Assembly (NCBI RefSeq): GCF_000981785.2
Contig: NZ_CP011304.1
Coordinates: 4,262,214 to 4,294,213, forward strand
DNA length: 32,000 nucleotides
Direction: 5' to 3'
Origin: Microcystis aeruginosa NIES-2549
Lineage (GTDB): Bacteria; Cyanobacteriota; Cyanobacteriia; Cyanobacteriales; Microcystaceae
Part shown: piece after piece, positions 4,315 through 30,101 of the stretch
Position numbering within the stretch: the stretch's first letter is position 1
Layout of the letters: every line of letters begins with the position of its first letter
Translations under genes and position numbers: made by a program
Notes under the pieces: model-generated
Told to the model about the DNA's origin: nothing
Database searches by the model: none
The model's input: the letters and a program-made list of their open reading frames with translations, nothing else

Positions 4315-4475
4315 AGAACTTATACAAACTCATAACGACTACATATAAGCTAACAAAAAAAGAGACAATTGGGGCAAGCTTAGTTAAAAAAATATGTCGA
4401 TGGGGCGGAGGGAGCGATCGATCTAAGTTTTAATGGGAGTAGAAAGAAAGATTTATTCCATTTCCCCTGATTGCC

Positions 4476-18499: not shown

Positions 18500-19135
18500 A
18501 TGACCACCACCGCCGATGACGTTTGGAAATTATTAGCCGAATTAGTAGAAGCTCAAAAAGAGACAGAAAGATGCTTTCAAGAAACCGAGCGACGCTTTCA
18601 AGAAACCGAGCGGATTCTCAAAGAACAATCGTTAGAAACCGAGCGGATTCTCAAAGAACAATCTTTAAAAACCGATCGCCAAATTACTAGACTCAGTAAA
18701 GAAATTGGTAATCTTGGCGGTAAATGGGGACGTTTTGTCGAAAATATGGTAGCTCCAGCTTGTGAGACTTTATTTTTAAATCGTCAGATTCCCGTACATC
18801 AAGTTAGTCAAAGAGTCAGAAAACGTCTCGACGGTAAAACCCTAGAAATTGATGTGTTAGTAACTAATGAAAATCATGTGCTGGTAGTGGAAGTCAAAAG
18901 TAGTTTAAGTGTAGATGATGTCAAAGAATTAATCAAGAATCTAACAGAATTTAGGCAATTTTTCCCAGAATATAACCAGAAACAATTATATGGGGCAGTA
19001 GCAGGCATTGAAATCGAAGAAGGAGCAGATAAATATGCCTATCGTCAAGGTTTATTTGTCTTGGCACAAAGGGGGGAAAATGTAGCAATTCTTAACGATA
19101 CTGAGTTTCAACCGAAAACGTGGTATGATCCTTAA
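18500..19135 (+). CDS. coiled-coil / PD-(D/E)XK nuclease-fold protein (DUF3782-like), tandem copy 2
   Basis: Near-identical to copy 1 at a 705-bp period, including about 45 bp of upstream sequence. It differs by one 7-aa repeat unit, a few substitutions and a 3-aa longer C-terminus. Confidence 0.7.
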   Translation: MTTTADDVWKLLAELVEAQKETERCFQETERRFQETERILKEQSLETERILKEQSLKTDRQITRLSKEIGNLGGKWGRFVENMVAPACETLFLNRQIPVHQVSQRVRKRLDGKTLEIDVLVTNENHVLVVEVKSSLSVDDVKELIKNLTEFRQFFPEYNQKQLYGAVAGIEIEEGADKYAYRQGLFVLAQRGENVAILNDTEFQPKTWYDP

Positions 19136-19253
19136 GCTTGTCTTTGGGAAAGTCCAGTGCGATTCTGGTACTGTGCCGCAGCTGTAATCAAGTAAAAAGT
19201 AAAAAGAGTACATCTTCCCTTTTTCCTTGCGAGTCAGAATGCCAATTACAAGT
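19136..19253 (+). promoter_or_regulatory. cobalamin (B12) riboswitch upstream of cobG-cobH-cobI
   Basis: The core GGGAAAGUCCAGUGCGAUUCUGGUACUGUGCCGCAGCUGUAA closely matches the conserved cobalamin riboswitch core (compare E. coli btuB GGGAAUCCAGUGCGAAUCUGGAGCUG...GCAGCGGUAA). A B12-box-like GAGUCAGAAUGCC lies at about 19231-19243. A possible P1 pairs gcttgt (19136-19141) with acaagt (19248-19253). Confidence 0.8.
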
Positions 19254-19319
19254 TTTTAATCGGTAGATAGACAAATATTTTCTAACTACTTCTCTGCGTC
19301 GCATGGAGAACAAACAACG

Positions 19320-20735
19320 GTGAATTGGTTAGTTGAAGCAAATGCTTGTCCTGGTTTATTTTATGGAACTGCTGCCCAGGATGGGTTTTTAATTCGTCTC
19401 CGCACCCCCGGTGGATGGCTCAATTCTCCACAGGGAAAAGCGATCGCCACTTGGCTCGAACAATGGCAGACGACAATACAAGTTACCAATCGGGCAAATC
19501 TGCAAATTCGCGGACTGCAAAAATCCCCCAGTTTAGAAGAATTTCAAACCCTGCAAAAATTAGGGTTAGCCGCCCATAATCCCAGTATCGATCATCTGCG
19601 TAATATCATGTCCAGTCCCACGGCTGGAATTGACTGTCAAGAATCGATCGATACTCGTCCATTAGTCCAAGAATTAGATAATTTTATCCAAAATTATCCA
19701 TCAATTGCCCAACTAAGTCCTAAATTTAGTATCGGCATCGATGGCGGTGGTGCAGTGGGAATTGGCACCGGTTCAACTATGGCCTGGCAACACCGCTATA
19801 ATGAGATTCAGCTATCAGCAATTGTCCTCAATAATCCGAAAAATTTAACTTCTATTCTTTGCTTTCGATTAGCCCTCGGAGGAGATAAACAATTATATGA
19901 CACGGACTTATTAATTGAGCCAGAAAACTGTTTAGCTGTGGTCAAAGCTTTAGTCACAGTTTATATCGATTATGTTCAACAAAACCCCAATATCAAGGGT
20001 AAAAAACCTCGGATGAAACACCTGCTCAAAGATTGGGGATTGACAAAATATCTCGAACAAGTTAACTACCAATTACATCGGACTTCTACCGGCATAATAC
20101 AAGGGCAAGAATACCAGCAGGCTGCCCATTCTACTCAACCCTATTTTCATCTGGGAATTCATCCTCAAAAGCAACCAGGATTATCTTATATTGGTCTATC
20201 ATTAAGATTAGGACAATTGACGGCTAATCAACTATGGGGATTAGCGGCACTATCAGAAACTTTTGGCAGTGGTCAGTTACGATTAACCCCTTGGCAGACT
20301 GTTATATTACCCGATATTCCCGATGAAAAAGTCTCAGAATTGTTGCCAAAACTGGCATCCTTAGGATTATCCGCTTCTCCCGGATGGGATGCGGGGATAG
20401 TTGCCTGTAGCGGTAAACCGGGCTGTGCGGCGGCGGCCACTGCAACTCAAATTCATGCTTCTCTCTTGGCAGATTATTTGAAAGAACACTTAACCTGCAA
20501 TTCTCCTGTTAATATTCACTTGACAGGTTGTGCTAAATCCTGCGCTCAACCGGGTCCGGCCGAAATTACCCTTTTAGGAACTACCATCGAGGAAAATGGC
20601 CAAATACTAGAAGCTTATCAAGTCTATATGGGTGATAGTCAAAAATTCTTAGAAACACCCATATTTGAGGGAGAATTTACCAAGATTCCCCCCCTCATAG
20701 CCCAAATTTTAAGCTCCCAAAAATCGAAAATTTAG
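19320..20735 (+). CDS. cobG: precorrin-3B synthase
   Basis: GTG start. Sulfite/nitrite-reductase-like repeats (NRANLQIRG, LRLTPWQTV) and a Cys cluster (CSGKPGCAAA...GCAKSC). Lies in cob gene context. Confidence 0.85.
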   Translation: MNWLVEANACPGLFYGTAAQDGFLIRLRTPGGWLNSPQGKAIATWLEQWQTTIQVTNRANLQIRGLQKSPSLEEFQTLQKLGLAAHNPSIDHLRNIMSSPTAGIDCQESIDTRPLVQELDNFIQNYPSIAQLSPKFSIGIDGGGAVGIGTGSTMAWQHRYNEIQLSAIVLNNPKNLTSILCFRLALGGDKQLYDTDLLIEPENCLAVVKALVTVYIDYVQQNPNIKGKKPRMKHLLKDWGLTKYLEQVNYQLHRTSTGIIQGQEYQQAAHSTQPYFHLGIHPQKQPGLSYIGLSLRLGQLTANQLWGLAALSETFGSGQLRLTPWQTVILPDIPDEKVSELLPKLASLGLSASPGWDAGIVACSGKPGCAAAATATQIHASLLADYLKEHLTCNSPVNIHLTGCAKSCAQPGPAEITLLGTTIEENGQILEAYQVYMGDSQKFLETPIFEGEFTKIPPLIAQILSSQKSKI

Positions 20736-24331: not shown

Positions 24332-24385
24332 ATGAAAATTCTGGTCTTAAATGCGGGATCGAGCAGTCAAAAAAGTTGTTTATCA
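24332..24385 (+). pseudogene. ackA: acetate kinase, 5' fragment (first about 17 codons)
   Basis: MKILVLNAGSSSQKSCL matches the AckA N-terminus (compare Synechocystis LNAGSSSQKSCLYEL). Homology stops after tgttta, and a stop follows a few codons later. Confidence 0.7.
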
Positions 24386-24488
24386 AAAATGTCGGGGTGA
24401 AGACCCTCGTACTGACGGGATGAAACCGTTCCGACATCGGCGTGAGCTTTTGTCGAACGCTGATCTCACGGCCGAAGCCCCGACCAAT

Positions 24489-25634
24489 AGACCTCTCCAA
24501 AAATTTATAAGTCAGTCACAGCAAGGAAGAGAGGCAGATTAGACCAAGAGTCAAAATTAGCTCTCAAAACCGATTAATCAGGGTTTGAAGAGACAAAATC
24601 CAATTTTGACGGAAAACTATGGCTAATTATAACGTCAATTACTTCCCCTGATTGCTCCCCTTCTATTACTTCTAAAATTAGCGCACTAATTCTCAACCTT
24701 ACTAAGCCACAAACGGTCAGTAAAACCGATTTATATCGACTTTTATTTAATCTAAATCTTTCTTGAACTACTTTAAATACTTTGACAACTCGAATTAAAT
24801 GCTCAACAAAAATTCGCCGAGATGATAAAACTTTATTTTCTTTAATTTGATTCTCGGTTAATTCTCCATTCTTAGGTTTTTTATCAGGAGTTCTGATTTG
24901 ATTTTCTCCTAGGTAAGCTTTATCTCCAATAAAAGTTTGTTGAGAATCGAATTTGCTTAAAGTTTGCCGACAGATTTTTATGTCGCTCGTCGGACCAGGT
25001 TGACCAATAACTACATCAACAATATCTTCAGCTTTTGGCAAGACAATAAATTGACTTTTTAAAGTATGTCTTTTTTGCTTTCCCGAATAATATATTTTTT
25101 GTTCTTGATAATCGGTCGGCCTCTCCACGGGCTGTTCTGCGCTATCGACAATCAACTCATAATCCCTTAATTGTTCAATTATTATTTCCTCTTCTTGGCA
25201 CTTCTTTATTTGTTCTAACAAACTTGGCGGTAACTCTCCTTCAAAAAGTTTTTGCCAATAGGTAAAGATATTATGAGCCGTTGATTCACTCACTTGAAAT
25301 ATTAGTCCTAAGATTTGAAAGCTTAGATGATGTCTTAAATAAACCAACATTAGAACAATTTGTTCCTCTTCTGATAATTTAGGAGGTGTTCCGCTTCCTG
25401 GTTGATTAATCCTAATTTTGGTTTTTTCGATTTCTGATTGGTTTTTCCGATGTATAAGTTTTCCAAGTGCCATCAGTTGTTCTAGTTGTTGGTAGTCAAT
25501 TCCTAATAGTCTTTTAGTTTGTTTCGGATATTTTTGAATGTATTCCCAAGTGTAGTTTTTCATGGCTTTTTTGAGTTACTATTTGTTTTATTATATCCTA
25601 TATATTGTGATTTAATTAAATTATGGAGAGGTCT
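24489..25634 (-). mobile_element. IS5-family / Harbinger-like (DDE_Tnp_4) insertion sequence, 1146 bp, with a 3-bp TSD
   Basis: Terminal inverted repeats are AGACCTCTCCAAAAATTTAT (24489-) and AGACCTCTCCATAATTTAAT (reverse complement, ending at 25634). They are flanked by direct AAT at 24486-24488 and 25635-25637. Confidence 0.85.
24574..25563 (-). CDS. IS5-family DDE transposase (HTH + DDE_Tnp_4 type)
   Basis: 329 aa. The DDE triad context is LIVDSAEQPVERP ... YYSGKQKRHTLKSQ ... FIGDKAYLG ... RRIFVEHLIRVVK. Confidence 0.9.
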   Translation of the reverse strand: MKNYTWEYIQKYPKQTKRLLGIDYQQLEQLMALGKLIHRKNQSEIEKTKIRINQPGSGTPPKLSEEEQIVLMLVYLRHHLSFQILGLIFQVSESTAHNIFTYWQKLFEGELPPSLLEQIKKCQEEEIIIEQLRDYELIVDSAEQPVERPTDYQEQKIYYSGKQKRHTLKSQFIVLPKAEDIVDVVIGQPGPTSDIKICRQTLSKFDSQQTFIGDKAYLGENQIRTPDKKPKNGELTENQIKENKVLSSRRIFVEHLIRVVKVFKVVQERFRLNKSRYKSVLLTVCGLVRLRISALILEVIEGEQSGEVIDVIISHSFPSKLDFVSSNPD

Positions 25635-25749
25635 AATATAAAACAGCGAAGCACGATTAAATCCTTGACAGTTTAGCCTTGCATAGTTTATCATAGTAAA
25701 TATGGTTTGATAAACAAAATGTTAAAAGCGTTTAAGTACAGAATCTATC

Positions 25750-28120
25750 GTGCGACTCGTTCCTACCAAAAGTCTAACAGACGTGGGTAGGACAAGGTTG
25801 AGAACCTTGATAACTCAATAACCGTGAAGGTGAAAGTCCTTCCCTCCAGATGATGGAGTGACAGCATAACCCCTTCCTGTGGAGAACGGTCATCAAAATG
25901 GGAAAAGCGGGGTTAAATGGCAGTAAAGATGAATCTGACATCAAAACCTGTCTAGCATCTAACTATGTGTATGAATAAGAACTTCCGTCAGAAGTATCGT
26001 CACTGAAACCTAGCCTACACAGATTATTGGCTGGCAACAAAATGTTAACAAGCTAACGTACTGGGAAAAGATAGAGTTCAACCAGAATCATCTACACAGC
26101 TTCGGTATAGAGGAAGACACTAAAGTTAGGAATACGGTTGTTGGGAACGAAGTAATCCTTATGAATCTCTTAGATAGGTCGAAATCTAAGTAGTAACCAG
26201 CGTAAGACTCATATAGGAAAGGATTGTGTAAGAAGCCAACGCCTATCTGTAATAGATAAGGATATGCTGACGTACACACTGTTCAATGGAATGAATGGTC
26301 TTAAGTAGTAATGAAAAAGTTATGAACACGGCAACAAAACCGATGTATGAATGGAAGGACATCAACTGGCGAAAAGCTGAAAGATGTGTTTTTAAGTTAT
26401 CAAAAAGAATATTCAAAGCCAGTCAACGGGGTGATGTCAAATTAGTCCACAAATTACAAAGGCTACTCCTAAAAAGCTGGTACGCCAAACTGATAGCCGT
26501 CAGACGGGTTAGCCAAGATAATCAAGGCAAGAAAACCGCAGGGGTAGATGGGATAAAATCCTTAACACCCAAACAAAGAATGGCACTTGTCAATAATCTA
26601 AAACCTGGCAATAAATCAAAACCAACTCGTAGAGTATGGATACCAAAACCCAATACGGATGAAAAGCGACCTCTAGGGATTCCCACCATGTACGAACGGG
26701 CATTACAAGCCTTAGTAAAACTGGCATTAGAACCCGAATGGGAAGCAAAATTTGAACCTAACAGTTATGGATTTAGACCAGCACGTTCAGCCCATGACGC
26801 AATCGGAGCAATCTACATAAGCATCAACAAAAAGCCCAAATATGTGCTAGATGCGGACATAAGTAAATGCTTTGATAAAATAAACCACCAGAAACTACTG
26901 ACAAAACTTCAAACTTACCCCAAGCTAAGACAACAAATCAAAGCATGGCTAAAGAGTGGAGTCATGGATGGAAAAAACCTATTCCCTACCAATGAAGGCA
27001 CACCACAGGGAGGTGTAATCTCCCCTTTACTAGCTAACATAGCCTTACACGGCATGGAAGAAAGAGTTAAGCAATATGCAAAAACTCTGAAAGGCAATAA
27101 ATCCAAAAATGAACAAGCCTTAACCCTAATCAGATATGCAGATGATTTTGTTATCCTGCACGAAGATTTAAAGGTAATAAAGGAATGTCAAGAAATCATT
27201 AAACAATGGTTAGCAGAAATGGGGCTAGAACTGAAGCCTAGTAAAACAAGAATATCCCATACTCTTGAAACTTATGATGATTACGTTGGATTTGATTTTC
27301 TCGGATTCAACATCAGGCAATACCAAGTCGGAAAACATCACGGGGCAAAAAGTAGTAAAGGAGTCAAACTAGGTTTTAAAACCCTAATCAAGCCTAGTGC
27401 TGAAAAAGTCAAGTCCCATCTAAAGAAATTGGGAGAAGTAGTAAATAGTCAGAAGTCATCCCCACAGGATGCCTTAATCAAACGACTCAATCCAATCATT
27501 AGAGGATGGAGCAATTACTATTCATCAGTAGTAAGCTCAAAAACATTCACAGATTGTGATTACTACTTCTTTGAAAAACTCAAGAGATGGGCATACAGAC
27601 GACACCCAATGAAAAACAAAACTTGGATAATGCGTAAATATTGGCATACTGAGGGAAAAGATAATTGGGTATTCAGCACAAGAGGAGGTAAAAACCCCTT
27701 CAAACTGGCAAGACACCTAGATACAAAAATCGTAAGATACGTCAAGGTGAAAGGGGATAAAAGTCCCTATGATGGGGATTTAATATACTGGAGTAGTCGA
27801 ATGGGTAAACACCCAGAAATGCCACCAGAAAAAGCTATTCTACTCAAAAGACAGCAAGGACGTTGTGCATATTGTGGACTATATTTCCAAGATGGAGACA
27901 TACTCGAAACCGACCACATTATCCCTAAATCAAAAGGGGGTAAAAACAATCGAGATAATAAACAGTTACTCCATCGACATTGCCACGATTCTAAAACTGC
28001 ATTAGATAAAACTGGTACTCATGACAAAGAGCCATTGGAGAGAGGAGCGGTGTGAGGTGAAAGTCTCACGCACCGTTTTGAAGCCGAGCCAGAATGGTGA
28101 CATATCTGGCTTAGGGCAAC
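25750..28120 (+). mobile_element. bacterial group II intron (2371 nt) with an intron-encoded RT-maturase-HNH protein
   Basis: The 5' end is GUGCGAC and the 3' end is ...AAC. Domain V (28045-28078) is GAGCGGUGUGAGGUGAAAGUCUCACGCACCGUUU, close to the DV consensus with the AGC triad and a GAAA loop. Domain VI has a stem of 28087-28093 with 28105-28111 and a bulged A at 28113, 7 nt from the 3' splice site. Removing the intron precisely restores the conserved TnpB N-terminus. A tentative EBS1 gataga (26070-26075) pairs with IBS1 tctatc (25744-25749). Confidence 0.88.
26295..28055 (+). CDS. group II intron reverse transcriptase / maturase with a C-terminal HNH endonuclease domain
   Basis: RT motifs (RRVWIPKPN...KRPLGIPT, FDKINH, GTPQGGVISPLLANI, YADDFVIL), an X/maturase region (LNPIIRGWSNYY) and HNH (CAYCG...DHIIPKSKGGKNNRDNKQLLHRHCH). 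The start may be the internal M at 26322. Confidence 0.92.
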   Translation: MVLSSNEKVMNTATKPMYEWKDINWRKAERCVFKLSKRIFKASQRGDVKLVHKLQRLLLKSWYAKLIAVRRVSQDNQGKKTAGVDGIKSLTPKQRMALVNNLKPGNKSKPTRRVWIPKPNTDEKRPLGIPTMYERALQALVKLALEPEWEAKFEPNSYGFRPARSAHDAIGAIYISINKKPKYVLDADISKCFDKINHQKLLTKLQTYPKLRQQIKAWLKSGVMDGKNLFPTNEGTPQGGVISPLLANIALHGMEERVKQYAKTLKGNKSKNEQALTLIRYADDFVILHEDLKVIKECQEIIKQWLAEMGLELKPSKTRISHTLETYDDYVGFDFLGFNIRQYQVGKHHGAKSSKGVKLGFKTLIKPSAEKVKSHLKKLGEVVNSQKSSPQDALIKRLNPIIRGWSNYYSSVVSSKTFTDCDYYFFEKLKRWAYRRHPMKNKTWIMRKYWHTEGKDNWVFSTRGGKNPFKLARHLDTKIVRYVKVKGDKSPYDGDLIYWSSRMGKHPEMPPEKAILLKRQQGRCAYCGLYFQDGDILETDHIIPKSKGGKNNRDNKQLLHRHCHDSKTALDKTGTHDKEPLERGAV

Positions 28121-28451
28121 CGACCAGTGAGCAATCCGTTTTGCTTGCCAAGTCGTTTGGCTGTGCTAGATGGTTTTACAATTACGCTCTAAACTTGACA
28201 TCCGAAACTTACAAGCAAACTGGAAAAGGATTAAGCAGAGACGAAATAATTAAGCTGCTGCCTTCCCTAAAAAAAAGTATGAGTGGTTAAGCGAAGTACC
28301 ATCGCAGGTATTACAACAAGCCGCTTTAAATCTTTCTAGTGCTTTCCTTAACTTTTTTGAAGGTAGAGCTAAATATCCTAACTTCAAGAAAAAACAGAAT
28401 AGGCAGTCGATTAGATTTCCTCAGCACTGTAAGTTAAAAAATGATGTTCTG

Positions 28452-28554
28452 GTATTAAGTAGTCGTGCAAAATAAATTTCCTAGTGAAGATAGGCAAGAG
28501 GCAATAGGCAAGAGGCAAAAGCTTTATCGAAATGTGTAATTAATGTTGCTTAGG
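28452..28554. mobile_element. roughly 103-bp insertion (MITE-like or footprint) inside tnpB
   Basis: Deleting exactly 28452-28554 joins ...KLKNDVL to YLPKIGEVHC... in frame and with the spacing seen in TnpB proteins. The insert contains stops and an internal direct repeat (ggcaagaggcaa taggcaagaggcaa). GGTA occurs at both junctions. Confidence 0.5.
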
Positions 28555-29407
28555 TACTTACCTAAAATTGGTGAAGTCCATTGCCAAGTTTCACGGCAAC
28601 CAGAGGGAGACTTAAAGTCTGTTACGGTTTCAGTTAATCCATCAGGAGAATATTTCGCATCTTGTCTTTATGATGATGGTCAGGATTTACCCCAAAAATT
28701 AACAGAAGGAAAAACTATCGGGATAGACGTTGGACTAACCCATTTTGCTATTACATCAGATGGGACTAAACACGGGAATCCTCAATACTACCGTAAGTAC
28801 GAACAGAGATTAGCGAGGAGACAAAAGAAACTTAGTCGCAAGCAAAAAGGGTCTAACAACCGCAATAAAGCTAGAGTTAAAGTTGCTAAAGTTCACTCTA
28901 AAATTGTTCGTTGTCGTGAAGATTTTCTGCACAAACTAAGTCGTAAATTAGTTGACGAAAACCAAGTCATAGTGATAGAAAATCTGGCAGTCAGAAACAT
29001 GATCAAGAATCAAAATCTAGCCAAGTCAATTAGTGATGCTGGTTGGGGTCAATTCTGTACCATGTTGAAATATAAAGCTGAATGGGAAGGGAAAATTTAT
29101 CTTGAAGTAAATAGATTTTTTCCTAGTTCCAAGACTTGTAGTAACTGCTTAAATCGTGTTGATAGTTTGAGTTTAGATATTCGTAGTTGGCAATGTCCTA
29201 AGTGTGGAGAAACCCACGATAGAGACATCAATGCCGCTAAGAATATTCGAGATGAAGGTTTACGAATTTTGGCGGTAGGGCATACCGCTACTGCTTCTGG
29301 AGGGAGAGTAAGACCAAGTAAAGGCACTGCTTTTGCAAGGCATCTCCCCGTGAATGAAGAATCCCTCGCTTCAGTGCTTCGGGGAGTGTCAACCCATTCC
29401 CTGCCAA

Positions 29408-30097
29408 TGGACTGAACTGGGAATCCGTCGCTATGGTTTCCATGGCACCAGTCATCAGTACTGCTCGCAACGGGCCGCCGAATTGTTGGGAAAACCCCTA
29501 GAATCCTTGAAAATGGTGATCTGTCATCTGGGCAATGGTGCTTCCCTATCGGCAGTCAAGGGGGGTAAAAGTATCGATACCACTATGGGATTTACTCCCC
29601 TAGAGGGATTGATGATGGGAACCCGCAGCGGTACGATCAATCCAGTGATTCTGATTTATCTAGAGCGAGAATACCAATATAATCCCGATATTTTAAAGAT
29701 TTTACTGCATAAAGAATCTGGTTTAAAGGAAATTTCGGGTATTTCTGGGGATATGCGGGCAATTACGACGGCAATGGCCGAAGGCAACCAGAGGGCAAAA
29801 TTAGCATTTGAGATGTATATTCATCGTCTGAAAAGTTTAATCGGATCGATGATTGCTTCTCTGGAGGGGTTGGATGTGTTGGTATTTACGGCAGGAATCG
29901 GCGAAAATTCAGCTTTAGTACGGGAAAAAGCCAGTCAAGGCTGGTCTTTTTTGGGTTTAGAGTTAGATTTGGCTAAAAATGCCGCCCATCCCCGCGATGA
30001 GGATATCGCCACCGACACATCTAAAGTAAGAGTGATGGTAATTGCTACGGCGGAAGATTCGGCGATCGCAAGAGAATGCTGGCATTTATCCCCATAG
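29408..30097 (+). pseudogene. ackA: acetate kinase, 3' fragment (about the C-terminal 230 codons)
   Basis: WTELGIRRYGFHGTSHQYC...MVICHLGNGASLSAVKGGKSIDTTMGFTPLEGLMMGTRSG...VFTAGIGENS matches AckA from its mid-protein GIRRYGFHGTSH motif to the end. About 170 codons between the two fragments are absent from the window. Confidence 0.85.
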
Positions 30098-30101
30098 CTC
30101 C

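Follow-up and report, generated by a model that had tools for sequence, protein, structure and literature searches.

A complete group II intron, carrying an open reading frame (ORF) for a reverse transcriptase (RT)-maturase-HNH protein, interrupts codon 11 of a tnpB gene in an IS200/IS605-family insertion sequence (IS) of Microcystis aeruginosa NIES-2549. It was found in a 32,000-nt stretch of contig NZ_CP011304.1 (hereafter the window, to the whole of which all coordinates refer), where it spans positions 25750-28120. The combined evidence makes it very probable that this is an intact and recently mobile intron, putatively of the chloroplast-like (CL)/IIB kind, that it retrohomed into tnpB codon 11 as a specialist of the tnpB N-terminus, and that the host copy is a relic. 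Its apparent site-specific mobility is supported indirectly, by a presence/absence polymorphism, by the occurrence of near-identical introns in diverged hosts and by eight further lineages inserted at the same codon. The features of the locus are collected in Table 1.

Boundaries, ribozyme domains and encoded protein

Both ends of the intron agree with the group II consensus GUGYG/AY: the sequence opens with GTGCGAC at 25750 (GUGCG in the RNA) and closes with GGGCAAC at 28120 (...CAAC), after which exon 2 opens with cgaccagtgagcaa. The insertion point lies one base into codon 11 (C/CG, Pro; a slash marks a junction here and below). The predicted junction of the ligated exons, AGAAUCUAUC/CGACC, exists as DNA in empty sites. 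At locus L004 (compared loci are designated by L and a number) the empty site reads ...aagtacagaatctatc/cgaccagtgagcaa, with ...agaatctatc directly before the junction, and is identical to the predicted ligated exons. Translation of the ligated exons gives MLKAFKYRIYPTSEQ..., which matches HTH_OrfB_IS605 and is the N-terminus of intact 394-aa Microcystis TnpBs.

Rfam models were used for identification of the ribozyme. Between 25600 and 29500 all Rfam matches were to group II models. RF00029, which covers domains V and VI (D5-D6), matched at 28043-28114 with 46.4 bits (gathering threshold 40), and the plastid-type domain V model RF04357 matched at 28042-28082 with 55.5 bits (gathering threshold 53); no D1-D4 family was matched in a permissive Rfam search. 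The D5-D6 segment folds with a z of -4.9 relative to shuffles, leaving A28113 bulged at a distance of 7 nt from the intron 3' end. When the 5' 551 nt were folded as a single sequence by minimum free energy, the result exceeded shuffles only slightly (z = -2.1), and a comparative fold was used instead; RNAalifold on seven lineages yielded 148 pairs, 14 of them compensatory, in a domain I-II-III layout.

The ORF in domain IV encodes an intact intron-encoded protein (IEP) with Pfam matches to RVT_N, RVT_1, GIIM and HNH, and with a match of 343 bits to NCBIfam TIGR04416 (group II RT/maturase; cut-off 300). The IEP matches the T.el4h maturase (6ME0_C) over its full length (E = 4.6e-112), residues 9-573 aligning to residues 21-559 of the chain. 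Its identity to NCBI Microcystis aeruginosa proteins rounds to 100%, with two residues differing (K/R and I/V). Among the 120 closest IEPs listed, whose identity is 64% or higher throughout, there is no T. elongatus protein.

A first-pass annotation, made from the letters of the DNA, had recognised, within tnpB, a group II intron that is complete and of the HNH type, and the Rfam D5-D6 match, the domains of the IEP, the comparative fold and the bulged A28113 bear this out. Its reading of the boundaries and of the spliced TnpB N-terminus was also correct, the ends being fixed by the empty site of L004 and by intron-less alleles. Its placement of the intron at the "codon 10/11 junction" needs correction, as the intron actually follows the first base of codon 11. 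Two of the checks that it proposed gave positive outcomes: the RF00029 search produced the match above gathering given above, and the folding of domain I was accompanied by the location of both exon-binding sites by covariation, each of them in an unpaired segment of the comparative fold.

Target recognition and independent insertion into diverged tnpB copies

The exon-binding sites (EBS) of the intron and the intron-binding sites (IBS) of the exon were found by aligning exon 1 and the intron across the seven lineages. EBS1 and IBS1 of the window copy form six out of six Watson-Crick pairs, and covariation across lineages was seen in 2/6 of these; for EBS2 and IBS2, both sides of the pair changed among the seven lineages in 4/5 cases. 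Overall, 96.1% of IBS/EBS cells were paired, with double-sided (compensatory) changes in 6 of the 11 pairs. When both helices were scored jointly, the observed covariation score was reached by 0 of 500 shuffles, and sliding the partner by 1-3 columns as a control lowered the pairing to 27-44% of cells. Two EBS2 candidates based on plain complementarity, GUACU at 26058 and UCUGUA at 26246, were dropped in favour of the site at 26003-26007 identified by covariation. By analogy with IIB introns, EBS3 is expected to pair with the C at position +1.

In the mechanism proposed, the intron RNA would recognise its tnpB site by base pairing of EBS1 with the last six bases of exon 1 and of EBS2 with positions -13 to -9. 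The target so read encodes the most conserved N-terminal TnpB motif, Y-R-[ILF]-Y-P, and passage of the intron between tnpB families would be accompanied by changes in the EBS sequences to match the new site. tnpB would provide a source of many transcribed, horizontally mobile and dispensable target copies.

The intron is present as independent insertions at three distinct chromosomal loci, namely that of the window (in ackA), a second represented by L001 and L002, and a third represented by L003 and L005. The introns at these loci differ at 2-5 of 2,371 nt (0.08-0.21%), whereas between the host ISs the divergence is 5.4-6.5% for the part running from exon 2 to the right end and 9-14% for the left end together with exon 1, making the introns approximately 30-170 times more alike than the ISs that carry them. 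Compared with the split of its hosts, the intron is therefore far more recent, which points to independent and recent entry into tnpB copies that had already diverged, through homing rather than co-transposition. No signal of exon co-conversion beside the intron was detected in the pair formed by the window and L003, the near-intron part of exon 2 being approximately 4% divergent compared with 5.5% overall.

Empty counterparts of an occupied site were identified on the metagenomic Microcystis contigs L154, L168 and L188, which share the chromosomal flanks of L003 at 95-98% identity and hold the same IS copy without the intron. BLAST alignments of the three contigs to L003 break at 4455/6826, exactly at both intron ends. 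One orthologous IS copy, that of the L003/L005 locus, is thus polymorphic for the presence or absence of the intron.

These data bear on a reading in which the intron entered a single tnpB once and does not home, the composite of IS and intron having been spread by TnpA transposition or by TnpB-guided homing of the IS. The position of the intron within the transposable unit, between left and right ends, would suit such hitch-hiking, as would the recurrence of the composite at several chromosomal sites. However, at the three loci a divergence of 5-14% between host ISs is incongruent with one of 0.08-0.21% between introns, an orthologous IS copy is known with and without the intron, and one intron lineage is found in tnpB families sharing only 28-51% protein identity. 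Spread by hitch-hiking only is accordingly considered very unlikely, and the suggestion of the first-pass annotation that the intron travels on IS605-type elements does not sit with introns so much more alike than their host ISs. Its companion proposal, that the conserved 5' end of tnpB is specifically targeted, gains support that goes beyond what was put forward there, from the eight further lineages, which are found at that codon in various tnpB families, and from the covarying EBS; and its survey of tnpB sites for occupied and empty copies has an answer, as both kinds exist.

Retrohoming into tnpB codon 11 by a still intact intron has several points to set against it. Gene conversion between copies could likewise keep introns near-identical and is a formal alternative. 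The EBS2/IBS2 pairing of the window copy is imperfect, with one A.A mismatch at -12, and position +1 is a C in every lineage, so that it offers no covariation on which EBS3/IBS3 could be judged. Splicing competence, lariat formation and the retrohoming mechanism itself (reverse splicing and target-primed reverse transcription) are predictions from sequence, and the assignment to the CL/IIB kind is a tentative one that follows from the best domain V match and the nearest solved IEP. Occupancy also appears to be low. A metagenome scan using the last 16 bases of exon 1 returned at least 120 matches, of which 90 were unrelated and 30 were tnpB N-termini, and among the metagenome matches listed 0 of these 30 tnpB sites were occupied; as assembly breaks at repeats bias such a scan, the conclusion that empty sites are plentiful and occupancy low is a rough figure.

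The mismatch at -12, together with surroundings that are all degraded, would also be expected if the intron at the window locus no longer spliced or moved and were a fossil like the rest of the element. The 586-aa IEP ORF is nevertheless intact, with its YADD and HNH motifs present, only 2-5 nt separate the intron from the copies at other loci, and neither the conserved ribozyme elements nor the promoter-like site upstream has changed. A dead intron is for these reasons regarded as unlikely, and retrohoming by an intact intron is retained as the preferred reading.

Related lineages and known systems

A scan for IEPs was carried out using one genome per species and sampled 80 intron loci. The eight further lineages examined with IEPs 79-90% identical to that of the window (L006-L010, L031, L205 and L206/L207) are all inserted at the same tnpB codon, among them a 90% relative (L206, L207) and a 79% relative (L205). 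The shared site lies after ...Y-R-[ILF]-Y-C and before C-N (Pro). Every lineage of the scan with an IEP identity of at least 81% occupies the codon-11 site: Microcystis T1-4, L006, Lyngbya PCC 8106, Calothrix, L. aestuarii, Microseira and a Microcoleaceae metagenome-assembled genome. Where measured, the host TnpBs of the further lineages are 28-96% identical to that of the window; of exon 2 of L205, only 5 nt were available.

The metagenome contigs L206 (316-356) and L207 (473-513) share an identical 41 nt on the 5' side of the intron, made up of 10 nt and exon 1 (MEKAYWFRFY). The DNA upstream of the shared 41 nt is unrelated between the two, and the tnpB families to which their exons 2 belong are not the same. 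In L206 this upstream flank is chromosomal and recurs in L158, 17 nt from the right end of an IS and in the opposite orientation. The pattern could be due to intron-mediated recombination, to transfer of the 5' exon together with the intron, or to an assembly chimera.

Several more distant relatives, with IEP identities of 60-70%, are found at other conserved TnpB motifs (a caret marks the insertion point). The intron of L014 is inserted at RKHLRV^T in the OrfB_IS605 domain, that of L026 at ENLNVSG^M (RuvC-II), that of L048 at YTSQN^C in the zinc finger (TSQxC) and that of L029 at DADLNGAK^N (RuvC-III, DxDxNAAxN), with further insertions at WYKDI^ (L078) and GRRDI^ (L019). L028, L037 and L082 likewise have introns inside tnpB at other motifs, and in L043 and L084 the intron lies just past the 3' end of tnpB, in a non-coding stretch that would be expected to hold the omega-RNA. 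Ligation of the exons gave continuous Pfam TnpB domains across the junction in L014, L029 and L048, the three loci tested. In total, tnpB directly abuts the intron in approximately 20 of the 80 sampled loci.

These relatives at other TnpB motifs are the most interesting lead of the analysis, as they suggest a wider habit of the intron clade. It is conceivable, although put forward here only tentatively and with more doubt than confidence, that related cyanobacterial introns (IEP 60-90%) form an undescribed radiation, repeatedly retargeted through EBS changes to several conserved tnpB motifs and possibly to the 3' omega-RNA region, with TnpB-bearing IS200/IS605 elements as a principal habitat. 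Were this so, TnpB/omega-RNA-guided homing, by recopying the whole IS into emptied sites, would supply the intron with a second, DNA-level drive.

Nesting in other mobile elements is common among group II introns (PMC8919778), and the locus taken alone is ordinary in this respect. Cyanobacterial group II introns have been described in several copies at a conserved site of the IS200-family element ISEL1 of a related cyanobacterium, T. elongatus (Mohr et al. 2010, PMC2882425), where insertion into another mobile element was proposed as a strategy for proliferation (PMC2882425). Those introns, of CL/IIB type as the one in the window is tentatively taken to be, resemble it in being cyanobacterial and in occupying a conserved IS200-family site; the window intron differs in its mesophilic Microcystis host and in carrying its own intact RT-HNH ORF. 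The nearest relative that is known for the introns from T. elongatus is EcI5, a CL/IIB1 intron (PMC2882425). The group IIB ribonucleoprotein of one of these T. elongatus introns, T.el4h/TeI4h (PDB 6ME0), provides the closest solved homologue of the IEP, and the expected mechanism, EBS/IBS-guided reverse splicing into DNA, is shared. TeI4h sits in a tRNA gene, in contrast to the tnpB location of the window intron, and is a distant relative from another lineage.

A further study mentions in one sentence an RT-HNH group II intron in a cyanobacterial IS605-family element (Nostoc PCC 7107), from which the HNH domain of IscB may have come (Kapitonov, Makarova & Koonin 2016, PMC4810608). The nesting is the same as in the window; the portion of that text available contains no site, EBS/IBS pairing, polymorphism or lineage analysis. 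The same portion lists IS605B-1_MA as a non-autonomous element with 46 copies in M. aeruginosa NIES-843 (PMC4810608). IStrons (Tourasse et al. 2014, PMC4227781; Zedaveinyte et al. 2023, PMC10690162) also combine a self-splicing intron with a TnpB-bearing transposon (IS605/IS607-type) and raise the same question of how splicing and TnpB/omega-RNA interact. In an IStron, however, the entire transposon is flanked by a group I ribozyme that splices it from host genes, whereas the window has a group II retroelement within the tnpB ORF, as a parasite of the transposon; no group I ribozyme was found at the transposon 5' end in the Rfam search of 25600-29500, which returned group II models only.

The concept of nesting is itself not new; no description of a codon-11 specialisation or of the EBS/IBS covariation was found in the literature searched. 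The present case adds a clean example from nature of an intron tracking its homing site, with covariation of EBS1 and EBS2 and their target across tnpB families only 28-96% identical. It also adds direct evidence, at the level of populations, that the intron has moved recently in Microcystis, a genus that forms blooms and has a very active mobilome. There is, moreover, a hint that several intron lineages find their preferred reservoir of homing sites in tnpB, now known as the gene of an RNA-guided nuclease, and the case bears on the interaction of nested selfish elements.

The host element and its surroundings

Following splicing and repair, the host translation matched Pfam HTH_OrfB_IS605, OrfB_IS605 and Cas12f1-like_TNB. 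Microcystis has an abundance of intact TnpBs of this family, 394 aa in length; an intact homologue with 96% identity, P0121 (445 sequences in its cluster), passes NCBIfam IS200_TnpB with 433 bits (cut-off 425). The RuvC motifs GIDVG, IENL and DRDINAAKN remain readable in exon 2. Relative to L001-L003, however, the tnpB of the window lacks one nucleotide of the A-run at 28269-28277, which shifts the frame, and with the 103-nt insertion downstream of it the gene is a pseudogene. A related copy of that insertion (88.7% identity) lies inverted at L002 1344-1449; within the window it is single-copy. The other two occupied Microcystis copies are defective too, through a nonsense change (TAC to TAG) in L001/L002 and an altered start codon (ATG to ATA) in L003/L005. 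Whether occupied copies are preferentially pseudogenes was also considered: 0/3 are intact compared with approximately 7/13 of the empty family copies, about 5-6 of these 13 being pseudogenes as well, a difference that is not significant.

With its frameshift and the 103-nt insertion, splicing restores nothing at the window locus. This goes against the expectation of the first-pass annotation that splicing would restore the host ORF, the IS being in addition split by another IS, and against its idea that TnpB expression is coupled to intron activity, as this tnpB is dead and the other two occupied copies are defective. In a stronger form of that idea, the intron would be kept because its splicing gates the expression of TnpB and of the downstream omega-RNA, coupling the nuclease to intron and maturase activity. 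The intron does lie 31 nt into the ORF, downstream of the tnpB promoter-like site, and translation of TnpB from an intact copy would require splicing; yet each of the three occupied Microcystis copies has a defective tnpB, the majority of the sites sampled are empty, and presence/absence polymorphism with near-identical copies is the signature of a selfish, recently mobile element. Such regulatory domestication is judged highly improbable. In the preferred reading, that of a retrohoming intron in a relic host, the intron at this locus would have nothing to rely on but the promoter-like site of the left end, which is still intact, and its splicing would have no ORF to rescue. The site, TTGACA-18 nt-TATCAT at 25665-25694, has 11/12 consensus matches and is intact, so that the intron can probably still be transcribed.

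Gene calling at these loci is affected by the intron. An ORF at 28021-28290 begins inside the intron, where it overlaps the 3' end of the IEP gene, and continues in frame through D5-D6 into exon 2. At L003 6727-7977 the gene caller gives a 416-aa "TnpB" with a false N-terminus derived from the intron. For surveys and annotation of TnpB, gene callers can thus be expected to yield N-terminally wrong proteins that start inside an intron.

Table 1. Features of the composite element and the interrupted ackA gene, in order of position in the window
Feature	Position	Strand	Remarks
ackA N-terminal 17-18 codons	24332-24384	+	MKILVLNAGSSSQKSCL found at 24332
TTTATC motif	24379-24384	+	ackA codons 17-18, directly 5' of IS left end
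Distal left end (LE)	24385-24488	+	GTCGGGG...CCCCGAC hairpin region; aligns with LE of L003, L154 and L168 save for a 52-nt gap
IS5-family element, 1,146 bp	24489-25634	-	nested in LE; transposase ORF 24574-25563 (-)
Proximal LE and 5' untranslated region	25635-25718	+	tnpB promoter-like site; conserved across family copies
tnpB exon 1	25719-25749	+	reads atgttaaaagcgtttaagtacagaatctatc; ATG, codons 2-10 and first base of codon 11
IBS2 (UACAG)	25737-25741	+	exon 1 positions -13 to -9
IBS1 (UCUAUC)	25744-25749	+	exon 1 positions -6 to -1
Group II intron	25750-28120	+	2,371 nt; Rfam, comparative fold, intron-less alleles
Domain I	~25757-26150	+	RNAalifold
EBS2 (CUGAA)	26003-26007	+	partner IBS2; covariation across 7 lineages
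EBS1 (GAUAGA)	26070-26075	+	loop of CUGG...CCAG hairpin; partner IBS1
Domain II	~26156-26218	+	RNAalifold
Domain III	~26221-26284	+	RNAalifold
Domain IV		+	contains intron ORF 26295-28055
IEP, 586 aa	26295-28055	+	intact ORF; RT (YADD present), maturase/X, HNH endonuclease
Domain V	28044-28079	+	Rfam, D5-D6 fold
Domain VI	28083-28117	+	branch-point candidate A28113
tnpB exon 2 (pseudogene) to IS right end	28121-29392	+	alignment to L001, L003; Pfam OrfB_IS605, Cas12f1-like_TNB
Insertion resembling a miniature inverted-repeat transposable element, 103 nt	28455-28557	+	breaks exon 2; absent there from L001, L002, L003
ackA C-terminal fragment	29393-30100	+	Pfam Acetate_kinase, profile positions 161-392

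The ends of the host IS were defined by comparison with other family copies. In 11 of these the left end starts right after TTAT(C), with no duplication at the insertion, and TTTATC is the probable target motif of the host IS family, resembling a transposon-associated motif. The right end finishes ...GGGAGTGTCAA at 29392, a boundary obtained from at least four copies. Between the two ends, the ORFs of at least 50 aa with a domain match are those of an IS5 transposase, the IEP and tnpB, with no Y1 (HUH) TnpA among them; the host is a non-autonomous, tnpB-only element of the IS200/IS605 family. A truncated left end was ruled out, as the left end lies upstream, split by the IS5-family element, and its hairpin region holds an extra 52-nt insertion at ~24426-24477. 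The IS, of approximately 1.3 kb, holds four nested insertions in total.

The IS5-family element has terminal inverted repeats AGACCTCTCC / GGAGAGGTCT and is bordered by a 3-bp duplication, AAT, at 24486-24488 and 25635-25637. Its transposase matches Pfam DDE_Tnp_4 and HTH_Tnp_4; the best NCBIfam match is to the IS5 family and lies below the cut-off (65.8 compared with 140 bits).

A permissive Rfam search for an omega-RNA gave no match at 29200-29400, and a conserved 3' region was seen in the alignment. The last ~60 nt before the right end (29330-29392; also in L001, L003 and L206) contain a hairpin, CTCCCCG...CGGGGAG, whose loop and stem vary between copies in an apparently compensatory manner; in the window the tnpB frame runs through this hairpin into ackA. 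The hairpin is probably the right-end/omega-RNA terminal stem.

The composite element splits ackA, and approximately 150 codons are absent between the two fragments. Recombination between two IS copies is one possibility for the origin of this deletion. In L004 and L206 another IS copy was observed at TTATC at the extreme 3' end of ackA. Elsewhere in the window, a cobalamin riboswitch was matched at 19106-19264 (+) with 32.4 bits (gathering threshold 31.5), upstream of an ORF at 19320-20735.

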